The position numbers and the translations under genes were made by a program. Shown here piece by piece: positions 21,413-30,505 of a stretch of 64,000 nucleotides of DNA. Location of the stretch: sequence record MN850622.1. One strand, written 5' to 3'. This stretch comes from Escherichia phage mobillu. The notes beneath the pieces are model-generated. The model did not search any database. It saw nothing but the letters and a program-made list of their open reading frames with translations, and was not told where the DNA came from. The first letter of the stretch is position 1. The number at the start of each line of letters is the position of its first letter.

Positions 21413-21487
21413 GGCCCTGTAGCTCAATGGGAGAGCTGTCAGCTCATAACTGATAGGTAGCTGGATCGAAACCAGCCAGGGCCACCA
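21413..21487 (+). tRNA. tRNA with CAU anticodon (Met or lysidine-type Ile; T4 synteny suggests Ile)
   Basis: Cloverleaf by hand: acceptor GGCCCTG/CAGGGCC, D arm GCTC-AATGGGA-GAGC, anticodon arm GTCAG-CTCATAA-CTGAT, T arm GCTGG-ATCGAAA-CCAGC, encoded CCA. Confidence 0.75.
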
Positions 21488-21490
21488 ATC

Positions 21491-21567
<77 letters not shown>

Positions 21568-23464: not shown

Positions 23465-23629
23465 ATGACTACTTTAATTATTTGGTTCGATGAAAATGAA
23501 GAAACATACTGTGTGAATATTGATGAAAGTCCAATGCCTGAATTTGAATCCTCGGATAAAAACTCTGTTGTATCTTGGGCTGAAGGTTATAAAGCAGCTA
23601 AAGGTGACGTTGAAATAATTTACATCTAA
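23465..23629 (+). CDS. small hypothetical protein (54 aa)
   Basis: ATG 8 nt after GAGGAG; below the 60-aa track cutoff. Confidence 0.4.
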   Translation: MTTLIIWFDENEETYCVNIDESPMPEFESSDKNSVVSWAEGYKAAKGDVEIIYI

Positions 23630-23660
23630 GTAAGTTTATGTTATAGTAGTCCTATCAAAT
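23617..23660 (+). promoter_or_regulatory. PeSL-like early promoter
   Basis: TTTACA, 17-bp spacer, TATAGT, right arm TAGTCCTATC. Confidence 0.55.
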
Positions 23661-23675
23661 CAAGAGGAAAACAAA

Positions 23676-23903
23676 ATGGCTAAAGTTAGTATTGATGTCG
23701 TTGATTATGAATACACAGAAGAAGTTATTCGCAACCGCCACCCTGAAGTTCGTATCGATTCAGTCCAAGATTCCAAGTTCTGGACAACTGAGCTTAATCT
23801 GAGTGGTCCTTATGAAGCTGTTAAGAAGTTCATGGTTGAAGAATACTGCGAAGGCATGCACCCCGAAGACGCCAAGTTTTATGTCAATTTGATTAAAAAA
23901 TAA
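23676..23903 (+). CDS. hypothetical protein
   Basis: 75 aa ORF after AGAGGAAAA SD. Confidence 0.55.
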   Translation: MAKVSIDVVDYEYTEEVIRNRHPEVRIDSVQDSKFWTTELNLSGPYEAVKKFMVEEYCEGMHPEDAKFYVNLIKK

Positions 23904-23945
23904 TTTACAAACTCTTGAGAGCAGAGTATAATGCTCTCGTTGGAT
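23903..23945 (+). promoter_or_regulatory. PeSL-like early promoter (near-identical copy at 53513)
   Basis: TTTACA, 17 bp, TATAAT flanked by inverted repeat GAGAGC/GCTCTC. Confidence 0.6.
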
Positions 23946-23973
23946 AATAAACCACCAATTGAAAGGTAATAAT

Positions 23974-24567
23974 ATGAACACACTGAAGAAACTTGTTGAA
24001 TTCATCCGCACTAAACTGGGTACTGCTATGGCTAAAAATCTGACTGTCGAAGAACAGTATAACGCAGCTGCAGATAAGTTGATTACCCAAATCAAAGAAC
24101 TAAAAACGGCTTCTGTTAAATCTATTAATGAAGAAAAACGTATTCGCGAACTTGTTAATGAAAAGAACAAGCAAGCCGCTTCTAAGGAACGTGAAATTCG
24201 TAAGCTCCTGGCTGAAGGACAAGATGTTACCATGCATGCTAAGCTTGGTCTTCTGTATCGTCGAACTGCCGAACAACTTAATACAAAAGCTGACGGGTAT
24301 GCCGCTATGCGAATTGAAATTGCTCGTAAGGTGGTTGAACTTGATGATGCTCGTCAGAATCTGGCAATCAAACTCGAATACATTCGTGAAACTCGAGCAG
24401 CCAATGCCCTTGGTATCTCTACGGCTGATGATGTAATTGAAATCGCTGCACTGACTAAGGTTGATATCGAAGACACTCTGACTCGTGTTGAAACGTTCAA
24501 TGGCACTCCAGCCGGCGTCGAAACCACTTCTGCTGATGTACAAGAATATATTAACTCTTTGAAATAA
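23974..24567 (+). CDS. coiled-coil protein, possibly PspA/IM30-like
   Basis: Internal [19 protein letters not shown]... with AAAGGTAA SD; long heptad-like helical sequence; family call is weak. Confidence 0.55.
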
Positions 24568-24575
24568 AATAATAC

Positions 24576-24597
24576 GGAGGACTCCGGTCCTCCTTTT
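24576..24597 (+). terminator. intrinsic terminator
   Basis: GGAGGACT-CC-GGTCCTCC hairpin then TTTT. Confidence 0.7.
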
Positions 24598-24616
24598 GGA
24601 TAATAAAGGAGTTAAC

Positions 24617-25219
24617 ATGCGAAACCAAAATAATGATATTGACTCAATGTTCGAAGAGTTCCGAGATAAGGTAAATCCACCTACGTCTTTAGTTGATTCA
24701 TTACGATATGTTGCAACCGGACGTAAATGGTACTGGTCGTCTTCTTATGAGACCACCGAGAAAACGGCTAGCCATAGCAGAAAATCTTTATTAGCCCCAG
24801 GTATTATGATTCATGATATCGGAGCTATTGCTAAACTAGTTGCAGACCATGATATTAGATTCACTGATTTCGTTGCTCCTACGTGGTCTGTTTGTTGTTT
24901 AAACACTGAATGGGAATATATCAGCGAACGCTCTGAAGATTATTATGGCTTTAGAGATAAGCTTCTGAGGTCTAATATGTTTTATATCGATACAGAAGTT
25001 CTAGTCGATAATAAAAAATATTACTTTACGTTAATCATCGATTCTGAAACTATGTATGAAGGCAAGCCTTTGCTTAAAAGAGTTGATGCTTTAAGTGCTA
25101 TTGATGCGCTTTATGAAACTATGGTTGTTAGTCCTAATTTCACTAACAATTTAATCCTTGAGCAATTTATTATGGAATGTAGAGAATATGTCAAAGCCAA
25201 CCCTATACATGCCAAGTAA
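24617..25219 (+). CDS. hypothetical protein
   Basis: ATG MRNQNNDIDSMFEEF... after AAGGAG SD. Confidence 0.6.
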   Translation: MRNQNNDIDSMFEEFRDKVNPPTSLVDSLRYVATGRKWYWSSSYETTEKTASHSRKSLLAPGIMIHDIGAIAKLVADHDIRFTDFVAPTWSVCCLNTEWEYISERSEDYYGFRDKLLRSNMFYIDTEVLVDNKKYYFTLIIDSETMYEGKPLLKRVDALSAIDALYETMVVSPNFTNNLILEQFIMECREYVKANPIHAK

Positions 25220-25583
25220 GCCCTGGGCGTATGAATACAAGCGTAAATTAATCCCAAATGAAGTACTATTTGGCCCTATTTTAGCTTTAGCATTTTTAAT
25301 CTTTATGATTATAGGAGCTGTTTTAGATTCTAGTGAAGTTATATCGTCTGATGCAGCATTTTCATTAATGTTCGTCGCACCACTTATTGTACCGTTTTTA
25401 TTAATGCCTATTAATTGGGTAGGATATTGGCACCAAGGCCGTCATCACAGAGCCCGATTAAGAGAATGGAAAGTTCAGTGCGCAAAAGCCCAAGCTCAGT
25501 ATGATGAAGCTGTTAAAAAGTATGAATATGAAGAAGCTATGGAATTCGTTAAGGAAATAAGATGCAAAAGCCTCAACTCTTAA
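25188..25583 (+). CDS. small membrane protein, C-terminal ...EFVKEIR family
   Basis: Hydrophobic segments; start uncertain (overlaps upstream gene). Confidence 0.45.
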   Translation: MSKPTLYMPSKPWAYEYKRKLIPNEVLFGPILALAFLIFMIIGAVLDSSEVISSDAAFSLMFVAPLIVPFLLMPINWVGYWHQGRHHRARLREWKVQCAKAQAQYDEAVKKYEYEEAMEFVKEIRCKSLNS

Positions 25584-25921
25584 CCGTATGGCCTTCTCTT
25601 GGTGAGAACATTCTAATTTTTATTATGAGTATTGGCATGGGATTTGCCTTTGGATTAGTTGGATTTCTTATTGACGGCGTTGTGTTAGGATTTATAGGGA
25701 ACACTGGTGGATTCACAGACCAATGGCAGGACTTACGGTATACCCAAGCCTTTGCATCCATCGCATCATTTTGTACTGTAGTCTATTTTTACTACGATTT
25801 TATAAACCATAACAAGAAAAATAAAAAGATTTACGCTTCTCAAATGATTAGTTATAATGAACTTCTAGCTAAACGTGAAAATGAAACAATCGAAAACTTT
25901 ATTAAGGAATGTAGAAAATGA
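25562..25921 (+). CDS. small membrane protein, C-terminal ENFIKECR family
   Basis: ATG after AGGAAATAAG; two predicted TM stretches; conserved C-terminus shared with 28339 and 29540 ORFs. Confidence 0.55.
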   Translation: MQKPQLLTVWPSLGENILIFIMSIGMGFAFGLVGFLIDGVVLGFIGNTGGFTDQWQDLRYTQAFASIASFCTVVYFYYDFINHNKKNKKIYASQMISYNELLAKRENETIENFIKECRK

Positions 25922-26223
25922 GTAAGATTATTGAAATTAAAGTACCAGAGTTTAATGATGCCAAATCCGCTTCAGATGCAATTTATAAACTTCTGAATCA
26001 AGCTGAACGTATCGAAGAAGAAGCAACAAAGATCGCAGACCAATATGCCGTATCATTTTCTGTAGGTGATTATGGTAGCGGTCGTACTTATTATCCTAAG
26101 GGTGAAATCGTATCCCAGTGGATGAAAGATGAAATTGAAAATAATGGTGGCGATGTTAAGCGTGAAGGTAATGGTTACGTTATTACTGAAGGTGCTTGGG
26201 TTTCGTCTTCTGCGTTGTGCTAA
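25918..26223 (+). CDS. small protein, tandem paralogue 1 (C-terminal GWVSSS..C)
   Basis: 101 aa; C-terminus EGAWVSSSALC; ATGA overlap with upstream gene. Confidence 0.6.
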   Translation: MSKIIEIKVPEFNDAKSASDAIYKLLNQAERIEEEATKIADQYAVSFSVGDYGSGRTYYPKGEIVSQWMKDEIENNGGDVKREGNGYVITEGAWVSSSALC

Positions 26224-26232
26224 GGAATCGTT

Positions 26233-26505
26233 ATGTCTAAAGAACAAACCGAACTGGCTGAAGCTGTAGCAAAAATCTATGCAGCTATTGAGGCTGCCAA
26301 AGAAATTGCTGATAAACAAAACACAACATTCAACTTGTACCCAGCTTATGGTATGGGTGGAACCTATCATTCACCCGGACATCTTAAAGCCGATCTTGAA
26401 CGTTGTACAAAAAACGGCTATGCTGAATGGGCTGACGTTTACCAATACGACTACAACCTGAGCCTCGAAACCGGTGGTTGGGTCGCATCTTCTCACACTT
26501 GCTAA
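26233..26505 (+). CDS. small protein, tandem paralogue 2
   Basis: 90 aa; C-terminus GGWVASSHTC; junction TGCTAAGGAA shared with paralogue 1. Confidence 0.6.
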   Translation: MSKEQTELAEAVAKIYAAIEAAKEIADKQNTTFNLYPAYGMGGTYHSPGHLKADLERCTKNGYAEWADVYQYDYNLSLETGGWVASSHTC

Positions 26506-26514
26506 GGAAACAAT

Positions 26515-26712
26515 ATGTCTCGTGAATTAGATTGTGCTGTACGTACGGCAGTAGCTGCTCTGGAAAACCTGTTCCAAATTGCAACAGAAGAACGCGAAGA
26601 AGTTACATTATGGATTGAAGATAACGCAGGTCTGAATCTCCAGGACGCGATCTCATTATCCCACAATAGTATCACTGTTCAAGGCTGGGTATCATCTAGT
26701 TATTCTTGCTAA
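26515..26712 (+). CDS. small protein, tandem paralogue 3
   Basis: 65 aa; C-terminus QGWVSSSYSC. Confidence 0.55.
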   Translation: MSRELDCAVRTAVAALENLFQIATEEREEVTLWIEDNAGLNLQDAISLSHNSITVQGWVSSSYSC

Positions 26713-26715
26713 AAC

Positions 26716-26756
26716 AGTTTACAACAAGATAGGGCTATGTTATAGTAGTCCTATCA
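26716..26756 (+). promoter_or_regulatory. PeSL-like early promoter
   Basis: GTTTACA, TATAGT, inverted repeat GATAGGGCTA/TAGTCCTATC. Confidence 0.6.
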
Positions 26757-26774
26757 AAACAAATGGAGTCCACA

Positions 26775-27014
26775 ATGATTTATTACGAAAGTATCGGAAC
26801 CAAAGTGGTTGGTAAAACCATTACTCGTGAAAAGTTTGCAAAGATATTCGATATGCGTTATAAAAAATCTGAACACAAAGGCATCCGATTCGAAGATGCG
26901 CACTGTACAATTTGCCCTTATAATGAAGACATAAACGGTACAATCGTTCCATTGGTAGAGGCTTCACATGATGACCTCTGGGATGAATATAATATCGCAT
27001 GTCGTGAAATTTAA
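26775..27014 (+). CDS. hypothetical protein (Cys/His-containing)
   Basis: ATG MIYYESIG... 7 nt after GGAG. Confidence 0.5.
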   Translation: MIYYESIGTKVVGKTITREKFAKIFDMRYKKSEHKGIRFEDAHCTICPYNEDINGTIVPLVEASHDDLWDEYNIACREI

Positions 27015-27042
27015 GTTAATGAATTAATCCGAGGAAAATATT

Positions 27043-27999
27043 ATGTTGTTAGTTATTGGTTCTCGTGCACTTCACTATCACGGTCTTATTGATTCTAGCG
27101 CTATTAAAAATAGTGATTGGGACTTTATTGCGGACCAAGGTTCTTGGAATGCATTCAAAAATCAAATGATGGGTGTATATGTTCACCAAGATAACCCTGA
27201 TGTCCAAGTTTTCAAATGCTTCCATAATGGACGCGAAACTCATTTTGAAGCATACATCGTTCCGGCTATCACTAACGTTCGCGAACTAGTCGGTGAACTC
27301 ACTCCTGAAGATTTCACGTCTTCTTATGACCTTTTAAAATACGCCAAGAAAAATTTGGCTAAAGACCGTTTGAACGGGTTTTACTGGGCAACTCCTGAGA
27401 TATGTCTTGCAATTAAGATGTCTCATCGTTTCAAGAAAAATAATCCATTCTTTTTAAAGACTATGAACCATATTCAGTATCTTCGTGGTAAAGGTGTTAC
27501 ACTGAACGATGAACTTACTGAAATTATGCTGAAACGCCAGAAAGAAACCTTGAATTATGCTCACCCAGTTCTTGACACTTCTAAAAGTGCGTTCTTTAAA
27601 GATGACATCTATACGTATGACCATGATACTATCCATGAAGCCATTGCACTAACTGACCAGCCTGCTTATAAGTTTTATATGAAAGAAGGCTCAGAAGTTA
27701 TGACATCACGCGAGAAGTTCGAATCATTACCAGAAATGGTTAAATTAGCCGGTGTATATGAAGAAGCTTGTGTATTAGCTCTTGAACGTTCACAGATTCC
27801 TAACGACTTTAAAATCCATCCACGTGATAGTTTTATGATGGCCCTTGAAAAGGTCTGTACATCAATCACATCAGGATGGTTCCGTGAGTTCGCTTGGGAA
27901 AATTATAGCAAAGTAGTAAGTATGTACCAAAGCTTAGGACACGACGATTACGTCAAGCGTTTCAAACAAAACTTTCATATGGTAAAACCTTTCAAATAA
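27043..27999 (+). CDS. hypothetical protein with nucleotidyltransferase-like N-terminal motif
   Basis: 318 aa; N-terminus VIGSRALHYHGLIDSSAIKNSDWDF resembles the G-S...D-x-D Pol-beta NTase signature (spacing longer than typical). Confidence 0.6.
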   Translation: MLLVIGSRALHYHGLIDSSAIKNSDWDFIADQGSWNAFKNQMMGVYVHQDNPDVQVFKCFHNGRETHFEAYIVPAITNVRELVGELTPEDFTSSYDLLKYAKKNLAKDRLNGFYWATPEICLAIKMSHRFKKNNPFFLKTMNHIQYLRGKGVTLNDELTEIMLKRQKETLNYAHPVLDTSKSAFFKDDIYTYDHDTIHEAIALTDQPAYKFYMKEGSEVMTSREKFESLPEMVKLAGVYEEACVLALERSQIPNDFKIHPRDSFMMALEKVCTSITSGWFREFAWENYSKVVSMYQSLGHDDYVKRFKQNFHMVKPFK

Positions 28000-28011
28000 T
28001 TTCACAAAACA

Positions 28012-28050
28012 GTTTACAAGGTCTGTAGTTGTTGATACTATAGACCTATC
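28012..28050 (+). promoter_or_regulatory. PeSL-like early promoter
   Basis: GTTTACA, 17 bp, TACTAT, inverted repeat around -10. Confidence 0.6.
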
Positions 28051-28079
28051 AAAACAAATGAGTGAATGGAGATATAAAA

Positions 28080-28280
28080 ATGACTACTTTGAATAAACGT
28101 TTCGGTAAAGCTAAACCTGGTTGTGCAGCAGAACGTCGTTATGTTTTCGCTCAGTTAGAAGATGTAGAGTATCAGATTAATCAAGTTCACATTACTGGTA
28201 TCGAGCCTATGTGTGGCCTTGAAGCTCTTCGTGAAGTTCGTGATGGGTATCGTCGTGACATCGAAGAAATGTCAAAATAA
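28080..28280 (+). CDS. hypothetical protein
   Basis: ATG MTTLNKRFGKAKPG... after TGGAGA SD. Confidence 0.5.
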   Translation: MTTLNKRFGKAKPGCAAERRYVFAQLEDVEYQINQVHITGIEPMCGLEALREVRDGYRRDIEEMSK

Positions 28281-28320
28281 GTGTACAAACTGATAGGACT
28301 ATGTTATAGTAGTCCTATTA
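28281..28320 (+). promoter_or_regulatory. PeSL-like early promoter
   Basis: TGTACA, TATAGT, inverted repeat GATAGGACTA/TAGTCCTAT. Confidence 0.6.
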
Positions 28321-28338
28321 AAACATGAGGAGAATATT

Positions 28339-28644
28339 ATGAAATTAGGCGAAACCAACCGAATTGGTCTTTTAACAATATTTGTATCACTTTTTTACGC
28401 AGCTCTTTCTGTTGCAGTATTACAAAAGGCTTACAGTATGGATGGTGTTCCTGGTTTTGTATTCTTATCGCCGTTTTTGCTATTCGTTGGAGCATTGTTA
28501 TTATATGCCACGACTAGTTTCGACCATAACGTCTGGGTCAATTATAAATGTAAATTGTCTGAAGAAGAACACGCAGAAGCTCGTAAAAAAGCTATTGAAT
28601 CTACCAATCTAGAAAATTTCATTAAAGAATGTCGAGGAAAATAA
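28339..28644 (+). CDS. small membrane protein, C-terminal ENFIKECR family
   Basis: 101 aa, two hydrophobic helices, C-terminus NLENFIKECRGK. Confidence 0.6.
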   Translation: MKLGETNRIGLLTIFVSLFYAALSVAVLQKAYSMDGVPGFVFLSPFLLFVGALLLYATTSFDHNVWVNYKCKLSEEEHAEARKKAIESTNLENFIKECRGK

Positions 28645-28645
28645 T

Positions 28646-29332
28646 ATGAATAGTTCTAAAGTGTTTAATAGTCAAGCTCGTGCAGTTGGTAGTTTTGCAC
28701 ATAACGTACAAAATGACCGAATCAAAAATGAACCAATGTTCTTTAATTGTGATTTGGGTTTTGCTTGGGATAATGGTGGCTCAATCACTCGTAGCTTTAT
28801 TGCCAATCTCCCAATTGATTGGACTAATCAACATGTTGTATTTGATTCTCGGGTTCATATGCTGATGCCTGGGTGGTATCCTGCTATCCCTGGATACCAC
28901 CATGACGATGTTCCTCGCCCTGATATTCCAGTTGGTCAACACTTTATTACTGCAGGACAACCTGACTATGACAACCCTCGTTACCATTCTGAACATATTC
29001 TTGGTCTTGTTAACGCTGACGTGTGTCCTACTCATTTTGCAACAGGAACTGCAGAGTTCAGTCAGATTCCTGATGGCGAACTTATCTATCGCCAGTGGCA
29101 CAAAGAAGTCCTCGAAAAAATTGAAAAAGGTGAACTAGAGAAATGGGAAGCTCCAGACCGTACTCTTCTTCAGTTTGATTGGCAAACATGGCACACTGGT
29201 TCTCGTGCAATTAGTAATGGATGGCGTTGGTTCGGACGTGTATCTCGTAATACAGACCGAGTTAAAAAGATTACCAATGAAATTCGTGTCAACGCTCAAG
29301 TTTATCTGGAATTCCCTATGGAAGGCTGGTAA
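28646..29332 (+). CDS. hypothetical protein; candidate 2OG-Fe(II) oxygenase fold
   Basis: 228 aa; GYHHDDVP (HxD-like) and WHTGSRAISNGWRWFGRVS (His then R-x-S about 12-15 residues later); motif-level only. Confidence 0.6.
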   Translation: MNSSKVFNSQARAVGSFAHNVQNDRIKNEPMFFNCDLGFAWDNGGSITRSFIANLPIDWTNQHVVFDSRVHMLMPGWYPAIPGYHHDDVPRPDIPVGQHFITAGQPDYDNPRYHSEHILGLVNADVCPTHFATGTAEFSQIPDGELIYRQWHKEVLEKIEKGELEKWEAPDRTLLQFDWQTWHTGSRAISNGWRWFGRVSRNTDRVKKITNEIRVNAQVYLEFPMEGW

Positions 29333-29613
29333 TGATTAACAAAACATATTGGTCTAATATAGACGACGGCAATAAAGGTATTTCATACTATTCAATAGAT
29401 TGGACAGGATGTCCATCCTACTTAGTTAAACGTATTTGCCAAGAATTTAAAATCGACCAGCCAGCAGGTATTATCGTGAACAGATACATTAACGGTTATC
29501 AACCTATCGATGAAGTAATACGAACAACTCAAGCTGATCTTGAAAAGTTTTTCAATAAGTGCCAATGGATCGCAGGATGGATTATATTTGTACCATCGGT
29601 ATGGTTTTTTTAG
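29332..29613 (+). CDS. hypothetical protein with hydrophobic C-terminus
   Basis: 93 aa; ends at a T7 homopolymer overlapping the next reading frame. Confidence 0.55.
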   Translation: MINKTYWSNIDDGNKGISYYSIDWTGCPSYLVKRICQEFKIDQPAGIIVNRYINGYQPIDEVIRTTQADLEKFFNKCQWIAGWIIFVPSVWFF

Positions 29614-29824
29614 TACTAAGGTGAGTTCTTTCGGTTTTGTTGATATTATTGCTATCTTATTAGCATCTACTATCGTAAGTATTATTGGTGGCATCATTGG
29701 CGGCGGCACTGTCGCTATCATTATTAATCTTATTAAAAGTAGTTTACAAGAACATAAAGACAAGATAAAAGCCAAGAATAATGAAGTTGAACGTTTTATT
29801 ACCGAATGCAGGAATTTGAGATGA
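29540..29824 (+). CDS. ENFIKECR-family C-terminal module; start undefined (possible frameshift fusion with 29332 ORF)
   Basis: Frame has TM segment and C-terminus NNEVERFITECRNLR but no ATG near the previous gene's stop; GTG at 29621 possible. Confidence 0.4.
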   Translation: MKSFSISANGSQDGLYLYHRYGFFSTKVSSFGFVDIIAILLASTIVSIIGGIIGGGTVAIIINLIKSSLQEHKDKIKAKNNEVERFITECRNLR

Positions 29825-30057
29825 GTATAGCAATTTACATTAAATCAGAATCATGTGATAGTTATCTGTACACATACGATAAAGATGTGTCAGAAGAAAA
29901 AATCAAAGACGACCTTAATATGGACCTTGATATGTTCTGTCCTATTGCAGATTACAAACTTGCGGTCTCTAATAGTGAAAGTCCATCTAAAGAAACGCGC
30001 ATTGAAGAATTTATGTCCGAATTAATGGCCAAATCATGGGACCGAGTTGATGAGTAA
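29821..30057 (+). CDS. hypothetical acidic protein
   Basis: ATG MSIAIYIKSES... with ATGA overlap. Confidence 0.5.
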   Translation: MSIAIYIKSESCDSYLYTYDKDVSEEKIKDDLNMDLDMFCPIADYKLAVSNSESPSKETRIEEFMSELMAKSWDRVDE

Positions 30058-30505
30058 GAAAAATAAAGTGAAAGAACTATCAGCCGGTATTATTTTCCTT
30101 ACCGAAGATAAAGAATTATTCATGGGGCGTGTAACTGGTTCTCGTCCTAAAGGTGCATTAACTCATCGGTGGGATATTCCTAAAGGACGTGTCGAACCTG
30201 GCGAATCTCCTATTGAAGCCGCTATTCGTGAATGCGAAGAAGAAACTGGGTTTACACAATATGACCCTGCCTTCCTGAAAGACCTAGGTGAACATCATTA
30301 CTCAGACAATAAGAATATTCATCTGTTCCTATATACCATCCCTGTAGAGCACGAGCAATTCAGAAACAGTGTTTGTAATTCATATCATACATTCCCAGAC
30401 GGACGACAGATTCCTGAATTTGATGCATTCGCTTTAATTAAACCTTCTCAATGGGAATATGTAATGGGCAAATCATTATATAAGGTGCTCACTACACTCC
30501 TATAA
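30047..30505 (+). CDS. nudE: Nudix hydrolase
   Basis: 152 aa; Nudix box GRVEPGESPIEAAIRECEEETGF; position next to e as in T4. Confidence 0.9.
   Translation: MMSKKNKVKELSAGIIFLTEDKELFMGRVTGSRPKGALTHRWDIPKGRVEPGESPIEAAIRECEEETGFTQYDPAFLKDLGEHHYSDNKNIHLFLYTIPVEHEQFRNSVCNSYHTFPDGRQIPEFDAFALIKPSQWEYVMGKSLYKVLTTLL

Follow-up and report, generated by a model that had tools for sequence, protein, structure and literature searches.

In the 64-kb stretch of phage DNA that was analysed (the window), three consecutive ORFs encode small acidic proteins whose termini all end in Cys, with the lengths and termini that the original prediction had described. ORF1 (25918–26223, + strand; small acidic protein type 1) encodes 101 aa with a pI of 4.6, matches PHROG 899 (E=1.3e-22) and comprises a long N-terminal helix, a DYGSGRTYYP hairpin and the tail GAWVSSSALC directly before the stop, so that the protein ends in EGAWVSSSALC. 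ORF2 (26233–26505, +; type 2) encodes 90 aa with a pI of 5.0, also matches PHROG 899 (E=5e-19), and carries an AYGMGGTYH motif and the tail GGWVASSHTC-stop. ORF3 (26515–26712, +; type 3) encodes 65 aa with a pI of 4.2, matches PHROG 4882 (E=7.7e-37), and has an N-terminal helix, no YGxG motif and the tail QGWVSSSYSC-stop. ORF1 (YGSGRTYY) and ORF2 (YGMGGTYH) have the hairpin motif YG[M/S]G[G/R]TY[Y/H], which ORF3 lacks, while all three proteins end in the family tail, W-x-[S/A/P]-S-S-x-x-C at the end of a protein of 65–175 aa. A six-frame scan of the window for ORFs ending in W-[VIL]-[ASTG]-S-[ST]-x(2-5)-C-stop returned these three places only.

The start codon of ORF1 overlaps the stop of the upstream gene (ATGA), which lies directly 5' and encodes an e.3-like small predicted membrane protein (25562–25921, +). 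Junction 1 (26218–26227, +) and junction 2 (26500–26509, +) are identical, TGCTAAGGAA, and consist of TGC (Cys), TAA (stop) and GGAA (SD); at both, the gap from the stop to the next ATG is 9 nt, and the spacing is equal in the Dhakavirus array. This string occurs exactly twice in the window against a shuffle expectation of 0.14 matches, and 0 of 100 shuffles reach two, which bears out the claim that the first two junctions share one nucleotide string of stop plus SD. Its sharing is explained by the conserved Cys codon, stop and SD of a translationally coupled array. Additionally, a repeat finder reported the 30 nt coding for the tail as a three-copy direct repeat (67–73% identity) and the 25 nt coding for YGxGxTY as a two-copy repeat (76% identity).

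A promoter-like site is located inside the e.3-like gene about 60 nt 5' of ORF1 (25835–25858, +; TTTACG-17-TATAAT at 25830–25858) and corresponds to an annotated T4 middle-type promoter in the near-identical, annotated phage SA35RD (L001 6436–6459; offset 19399). A second promoter-like site (TTTACA-17-TATAGT) and a hairpin occupy the intergenic interval between ORF3 and the next gene (26718–26763, +), and the hairpin region is annotated in SA35RD as a rho-independent terminator (L001 7331–7364). The next gene is an 83-aa ORF (26763–27014, +; PHROG 3723) between the triplet and a gene (27043–27999, +; Pfam DUF7277 and DUF7275) that starts 330 bp downstream of ORF3 and is co-oriented. This gene encodes a 318-aa predicted nucleotidyltransferase (NTase) of the Pol-beta fold, the proposed enzyme partner of the small proteins.

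The region 25400–27100 is 99.8% identical to Escherichia phage vB_EcoM_G53, and about 150 other Mosigvirus (RB69-like, T4-type) genomes match it at an identity of 95% or more. In SA35RD, the equivalents of the three ORFs are annotated as 'hypothetical proteins', RB69ORF139c to RB69ORF136c, and lie 3' of e.5/e.4/e.3-like genes, between the tRNA cluster and nudE/e. In T4, e.3 is followed directly by e.2 and nudE. Because neither a tail-Cys ORF nor the 318-aa gene is found on either strand of the T4 e.3–e.2 interval, the block between e.3 and e.2 (25918–29540; compare T4 67652–68319, L173) is an insertion relative to T4. Besides the three tail-Cys genes and the NTase gene, it contains another e.3-like gene and ORFs of 83, 72, 228 and 93 aa. 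No Rfam families were found in 23500–30500, and the nearest tRNA genes (21413–21567) are ~4.4 kb upstream of the three ORFs, with none closer than ~4 kb.

In an AF2 model of ORF1 (pLDDT 89.9), the long helix packs against a small sheet, and the final residue block has a pLDDT of 59. Based on a dN/dS of 0.22–0.38 for the three ORFs against their Dhakavirus and Marfavirus orthologues, with dS near saturation, the three genes are real, old, protein-coding and under selection. Pfam, NCBIfam and PADLOC searches with the three small proteins gave sub-threshold noise only, a Foldseek search with a small protein against BFVD returned only uncharacterised members of its own family and no HEPN or PII fold, and profile searches of PDB sequences with the small-protein and NTase families found no match.

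Kinship and age of the three ORFs

BLASTP aligned ORF1 with ORF2 at E=2e-4 over 54 columns that include the YG.G.TY motif, ORF1 with ORF3 at E=1e-3, and ORF2 with ORF3 at E=3e-4. Since ORF1 and ORF2 both match PHROG 899 and, besides this alignment, have the YG.G.TY hairpin and the N-terminal helix in common, they are clear paralogues. Between the ORF3 type and the ORF1/2 type, the hhalign probability is 93.6% at full length and 1.9% without the last 10 residues of both profiles. Because of this fall after trimming, homology of ORF3 outside the tail is not independently demonstrable, and ORF3 is then a paralogue that has diverged very far, or else a distinct small helical protein with the same tail module.

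Each ORF of the window best matches the positionally equivalent gene in Dhakavirus MN04, Marfavirus F48 and Kanagawavirus Q7622, at 51–65% identity, whereas the paralogues within the window share ~30% identity over partial lengths. As the orthologues are this similar and in the same order, the set is older than these genera, and the duplication is ancient and not a recent local event. The local tandem duplication proposed in the original prediction is thus upheld insofar as ORF1 and ORF2 are paralogues; recency conflicts with these identities, and the kinship of ORF3 is that of the tail alone. The objection that the similarity might be confined to the stop and SD nucleotides can be set aside, as the C-terminal motif is shared at the protein level (for ORF3, in the tail only), and the copy-number variation to be sought among related phages was found, with 0 to 6 tail-Cys genes.

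Two copies among related phages are defective. The RB69 reference copy of ORF1 (RB69ORF139c, P0013) ends early at 71 aa (...VSQWYEK) with the tail missing, and the mar005P1 copy of ORF2 (P0012, 75 aa) is frameshifted (...ERCTKTAMLNGLTFTNTTTT). These defects are either natural inactivations or sequencing errors.

The tail-Cys family and its linkage to the NTase gene

Mosigvirus, Dhakavirus, Enterobacter and Klebsiella phages, Aeromonas phage CC2 and 361–371 kb contigs all yielded relatives in a word-indexed search. When 1.84 billion representatives were searched exhaustively with a profile, 653 clusters matched at E<=1e-3 and 99 at E<=1e-10 (small-protein clusters counted at 50% identity), and the ORF1 (type-1) query alone gave 484 records at E<=1. 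Nearly all profile-search matches are 65–175 aa long, and the end of the profile is the last residue of the protein. The family consensus runs from an N-terminal helix through [S/D]F.F..YGMGGTYYP and an acidic linker to [D/E]-G-G-W-x-[S/A/P]-S-S-x-x-C-stop. Among the 145 small representatives listed, 137 end in Cys; in these, W(-8) and S(-5) are invariant, S(-4) is present in 135, the YGxG hairpin motif in 129 and an extra internal W-x-S-S-like motif in 29, and the median net charge is −8. A minority of family members have 1–3 residues beyond the Cys. Moreover, a type 5 paralogue of about 74–77 aa, absent from the window, has an internal DW[L/N][N/S]SSCYGE and ends in W-x-[P/S]-S-S-C without the two-residue spacer. 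Collectively, these results identify the near-invariant C-terminal tail G-W-x-[S/A/P]-S-S-x-x-C-COOH as the element that defines the family, and the terminal Cys is a plausible candidate modification site.

Type 5 occurs in loci L011–L045 (for example, L012 3893–4117) and brings the total to five tail-Cys genes in Dhakavirus phages. The largest array (L123, IMGVR_UViG_3300044693_000036; 9089–6081, − strand) has six family matches around one NTase gene, one of them downstream of it, and several degenerate tails (...GWEGSAC, ...GWQPSAGTC). Acinetobacter phage KARL-1 has three tail-Cys copies. The long top-scoring matches (2289–4549 aa, with 9–17 stretches) were rejected as cadherin-repeat proteins in which summed 'DDGSGNTY' hairpins give a spurious score. 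In the cadherin/RTX giants P0058, P0064, P0074 and P0132, a 'VDDGSGNTY' in each repeat mimics SF.VGDYGSGRTYY, which is a false-positive trap in HMM building.

The family is almost obligately linked to the predicted NTase gene, a context that the original prediction had missed. In the nine annotated phage loci inspected first, from Mosigvirus, Dhakavirus, Kanagawavirus, Tulanevirus and Tegunavirus (five Straboviridae genera), Marfavirus, Otagovirus and Phapecoctavirus, one to four tail-Cys ORFs lie just 5' of the homologue of 27043–27999 (9/9). For a forward test, the 318-aa protein alone was used to retrieve 80 viral contigs, and 71 of them have one or more strict-motif ORFs. The family HMM gave 150 matches among 6868 ORFs (six frames, 80 loci), 149 of them ending in Cys; all 150 are upstream of and co-oriented with the NTase gene, and the internal control, the reverse strand and downstream 5 kb of the same loci, gave zero HMM matches. 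The number of HMM copies per locus was 0 in 11, 1 in 25, 2 in 23, 3 in 5 and 4 in 16, and several zero-copy loci carry variant tails such as ...SSWVQSSC and ...NWDSSTC. The reverse test used a degenerate DNA pattern for YGMGGTY, which had 73 matches; 32 without a family ORF (chance or truncated loci) were left out. The NTase gene is on the same strand in 30 of the 41 loci with a family ORF, and the remaining 11 have less than 1.5 kb of downstream sequence, with no counter-example. Furthermore, unbiased clustering of the + strand ORFs of the 80 loci showed that only the tail-Cys and NTase families are common throughout. Of about 50,700 deposited phage genomes, 734 carry the NTase family; a search of 185,579 bacterial and archaeal species genomes gave only five MAG contigs with it, each having tail-Cys ORFs upstream. 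Collectively, these results show that the module is phage-restricted and that the linkage is near-obligate in both directions.

We therefore propose, at a probability of roughly 45%, that the three ORFs belong to a phage-restricted family of small and highly acidic, predicted cytoplasmic proteins, within which they diverged long ago, and form a two-component module with the NTase (27043–27999), the tail being the element that the NTase recognises. This module reading is weakened by the hairpin, the promoter-like site and the unrelated 83-aa ORF that lie between the triplet and the NTase gene here; the 83-aa ORF has a homologue in 12 of the 80 loci and is not a conserved part of the module. It is also weakened by NTase homologues without upstream tail-Cys ORFs, both distant (Streptomyces, Gordonia, Vibrio K460 and Stenotrophomonas phages) and closer (L050, L052 and L075), because of which the NTase can evidently exist without tail-Cys proteins. 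The separation of the genes in this phage and these unaccompanied homologues would suit an absence of functional coupling, in which the small proteins act independently (in metal or cofactor binding, as DNA mimics or through a C-terminal degron) and adjacency reflects shared early regulation or co-transfer. However, the linkage persists across phage groups that have no other neighbourhood gene in common, it holds in both directions wherever the sequence suffices, and every HMM match has the same position and orientation relative to the NTase gene, which makes such independence very unlikely.

The entries of PHROG 899, PHROG 4882, DUF7277 and DUF7275 give no function. A link between PHROG 899 and PHROG 4882 through the tail, and with DUF7275, is not recorded in the searched libraries or literature, and the literature searches found nothing relevant on the loci, the DUFs, the motif or phage NTases and AMPylation. 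The module has no name and its small proteins have no Pfam entry, and it has likely been overlooked because the syntenic e.3–e.2 interval of the model phage T4 is without it. Among its carriers are many coliphages and many phages of Klebsiella, Enterobacter, Acinetobacter and Aeromonas under consideration for therapy.

Roles proposed for the tail and the enzyme

The 318-aa protein matches DUF7275 with 264 bits and DUF7277 with 95 bits (cut-off 27 each). In 32 homologues (46–74% identity to the query), G6, S7, D25, D27 and E69 are invariant; G6/S7 are located at the turn between strand 1 and the helix, D25/D27 at the start of strand 2 and E69 on a later strand, which is the catalytic arrangement of Pol-beta enzymes. 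The signature hG[GS]...Dh[DE]h and a third carboxylate are present, with a GS-to-D spacing of 17 residues; in the textbook Pol-beta NTase motif, this spacing is 9–13 residues. A permissive GS...DxD pattern is kept in 79 of the 80 loci, and the predicted structure has the NTase fold, with MenT1 as the best structural match. Searches of NCBIfam, PADLOC and PDB sequences with the 318-aa protein gave no match, and a PDB profile search found no MenT. When the 32 homologues were compared with Pfam at E<=1, no family besides DUF7275/DUF7277 was matched by more than two, and AbiEii/DUF1814 was not among the matches. Collectively, the NTase has an intact catalytic signature within a predicted NTase fold, and the case for a two-component module with a predicted active NTase is strong. 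Three identities of the enzyme were rejected: AbiEii/DUF1814 membership, with no sequence match to the profile; RlaP, with no Pfam match and a nearby RNA ligase gene only in a distant Streptomyces phage locus; and a CCA-adding enzyme, with no sequence support.

The nearest described kind of system is an NTase with a small upstream partner, as in MenAT1 and MntA-HepT, from which the present module is set apart by being phage-restricted and multi-copy and by its invariant Cys-terminated tail. MntA-HepT is a type VII toxin–antitoxin (TA) system in which the NTase poly-AMPylates a Tyr of its small partner, and in GlnD-PII the NTase uridylylates a Tyr of the small partner. Similar to these two, the module pairs a Pol-beta NTase with a small cognate protein, and a hydroxyl side chain is the proposed acceptor. 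In contrast, the proposed acceptor here is a Ser (or the Cys) in a C-terminal tail, and the partner families are unrelated, with no HEPN or PII fold.

With MenA1-MenT1 and other MenAT/AbiE (DUF1814) systems, the module has the Pol-beta-type fold in common, and as in MenA1-MenT1, the NTase gene is immediately preceded by a gene for a small, helix-rich protein. MenA1, the partner of MenT1, has 68 aa, and its C-terminal residues are dispensable for antitoxicity (PMC10435456); no W-x-S-S-x-x-C tail has been described for it, whereas the tail is invariant here. MenAT/AbiE systems are bacterial and have one partner, whereas the phage module has 1–6 divergent partners. In MenT toxins, a phospho-acceptor lies two residues before the catalytic Asp (MenT3 S78/D80, MenT1 T39/D41; PMC7450476, PMC10435456), and the tRNA-binding surfaces are electropositive (PMC7450476). 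In contrast, D25-W-D27 places a canonical DxD at the phospho-acceptor position (a register taken from the motif, not from structural superposition), the NTase family has a median net charge of −5.5, and a DUF1814/AbiEii sequence match is absent.

The main rival explanation is antitoxin-like: the NTase would be a toxic tRNA-modifying enzyme of the MenT/AbiEii kind, acting for example in host shut-off, and the small proteins would bind it and, as MenA1 does with MenT1, hold it inactive or time its activity, with the tail as a pseudo-substrate plug. The gene order, the long helix and the MenT-like fold all support inhibition of the MenA1 kind. Nevertheless, we consider it unlikely, since bacterial genomes essentially lack the module, in contrast to TA and Abi systems, and since 2–6 divergent types persist in a conserved order from genus to genus where a single inhibitor would be enough. 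Moreover, the canonical D-x-D stands where MenT1 and MenT3 carry T/S-x-D in the motif register, the NTase family is net acidic rather than electropositive, and no other Pfam family is matched at E<=1, AbiEii/DUF1814 included.

For the two-component module that we favour, the exposed tail would be recognised by the NTase with the Trp as an anchor, and the Ser pair (-5, -4), possibly together with the terminal Cys, would enter the active site as a nucleotidyl/phosphoryl acceptor or as a pseudo-substrate. The divergent bodies (types 1–3 here and up to six per phage elsewhere) would provide a separate target or role for each modified protein, and the modified proteins would act in early to middle infection. 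The physical interaction, the covalent modification and any downstream target are what we infer. The tail is favoured as the active-site element because its invariant residues, apart from the Trp anchor, are all nucleophiles, and because it is terminal, less confidently modelled than the rest and sometimes repeated internally. With several divergent bodies beside one enzyme, 'one enzyme, several clients' fits better than 'one enzyme, one inhibitor'. Several observations weaken this proposal. The spacing between the Ser pair and the Cys is variable (as in type 5), and a minority have residues after the Cys; the closest structural relatives, the MenT enzymes, act on tRNA 3' ends and not on proteins; and both partners are acidic (median net charge −5.5 for the NTase family and −8 for the small proteins).

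The shared terminal peptide on divergent bodies is also the classical signature of a common docking site. The small proteins could be adaptor or specificity subunits whose variable bodies bind different host or phage targets and whose common tail docks on the NTase, so that the targets, and not the tail, are nucleotidylylated. The ORF3 type, which has only the tail in common with types 1 and 2, and the several types that accompany one enzyme per phage would agree with this. However, an invariant Ser-Ser and Cys are seldom required for docking, there are no known candidate targets, and the internal tail repeats (in 29 of the 137 representatives, and in type 5) fit multiple acceptor sites better than a single dock; adaptors are accordingly quite unlikely.

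Ribosomally synthesized and post-translationally modified peptide (RiPP) clusters, such as those of the prochlorosins, have several tandem precursor genes and one modifying enzyme, and S-x-x-C C-termini form lanthionine or AviCys rings, as in epidermin. The module resembles them in its multiple tandem small genes beside a single enzyme gene and in its Ser and Cys at i/i+3 at the extreme C-terminus. It differs in that, in a reversal of the pattern of most RiPPs, a conserved C-terminal 'core' follows a variable, folded body, and in that the Ser/Cys spacing varies in type 5. Among known dehydratases, cyclases, decarboxylases, proteases and exporters, none is conserved near the family, where only the NTase is conserved, and membership among RiPP precursors was rejected, as the neighbours have no RiPP-enzyme Pfam or NCBIfam match. 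A doubtful extension of the tail-acceptor proposal is a phage post-translational maturation system, in which the NTase would nucleotidylylate or phosphorylate the tail Ser pair of up to six small acidic proteins. Elimination and then attack by the terminal Cys might yield a lanthionine- or AviCys-like C-terminal ring, and the products might be chemically armed effectors that act on different host targets in early infection. If true, both the protein-modification chemistry and the class of phage factors for host takeover or counter-defence would be new, and hundreds of T4-like, jumbo and other phages would carry them, although T4 itself does not. More generally, the near-invariant Trp/Ser-Ser/Cys tail and its dedicated enzyme are a concrete and cheap experimental handle that could expose a new protein modification or a new control of MenT-like nucleotidyltransferases.

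Neighbourhood of the module

The e.3-like gene upstream of ORF1 is not conserved with the module outside T4-like phages. As possible third components, the e.3/e.4/e.5-like genes, the 83-aa ORF and the 228-aa ORF were rejected, as none is conserved with the module beyond T4-like phages. The 228-aa ORF (28646–29332, +) ends in ...EFPMEGW, has no Pfam match and overlaps the start of the next ORF with its stop; 23 of the 80 loci have a homologue 3' of the NTase gene.

Three e.3/e.2-like small predicted membrane proteins bracket the module (25562–25921, 28339–28644 and 29540–29824, all +) and share a C-terminal motif (...ENFIKECRK, ...ENFIKECRGK and ...ERFITECRNLR). Among the 80 related loci, 27 have ORFs that end in F-[ILVM]-x-x-C-R, as often 5' as 3' of the NTase gene. 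The e.3/e.2-like proteins are a second paralogue family with a conserved Cys-containing C-terminus in the same neighbourhood.

In the distant loci with shorter NTase homologues (Streptomyces, Gordonia and Vibrio K460), an ORF of 96–112 aa lies immediately 3' of the NTase gene (L169 4130–4468, L170 4100–4390 and L171 4114–4422), and some of these ORFs have aromatic and acidic motifs (...GYYDSWDSTYWDG...); they may encode a different partner. Finally, in Aeromonas, Vibrio K460 and Stenotrophomonas phages, nicotinamide phosphoribosyltransferase genes are located 0.7–3.5 kb upstream of the NTase homologue (L006 1–440, L171 1–2663 and L172 1–170), and K460 additionally has ribose-phosphate pyrophosphokinase and phosphatase genes. 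The early genes may have clustered by coincidence, or the proximity may reflect a connection with NAD metabolism.
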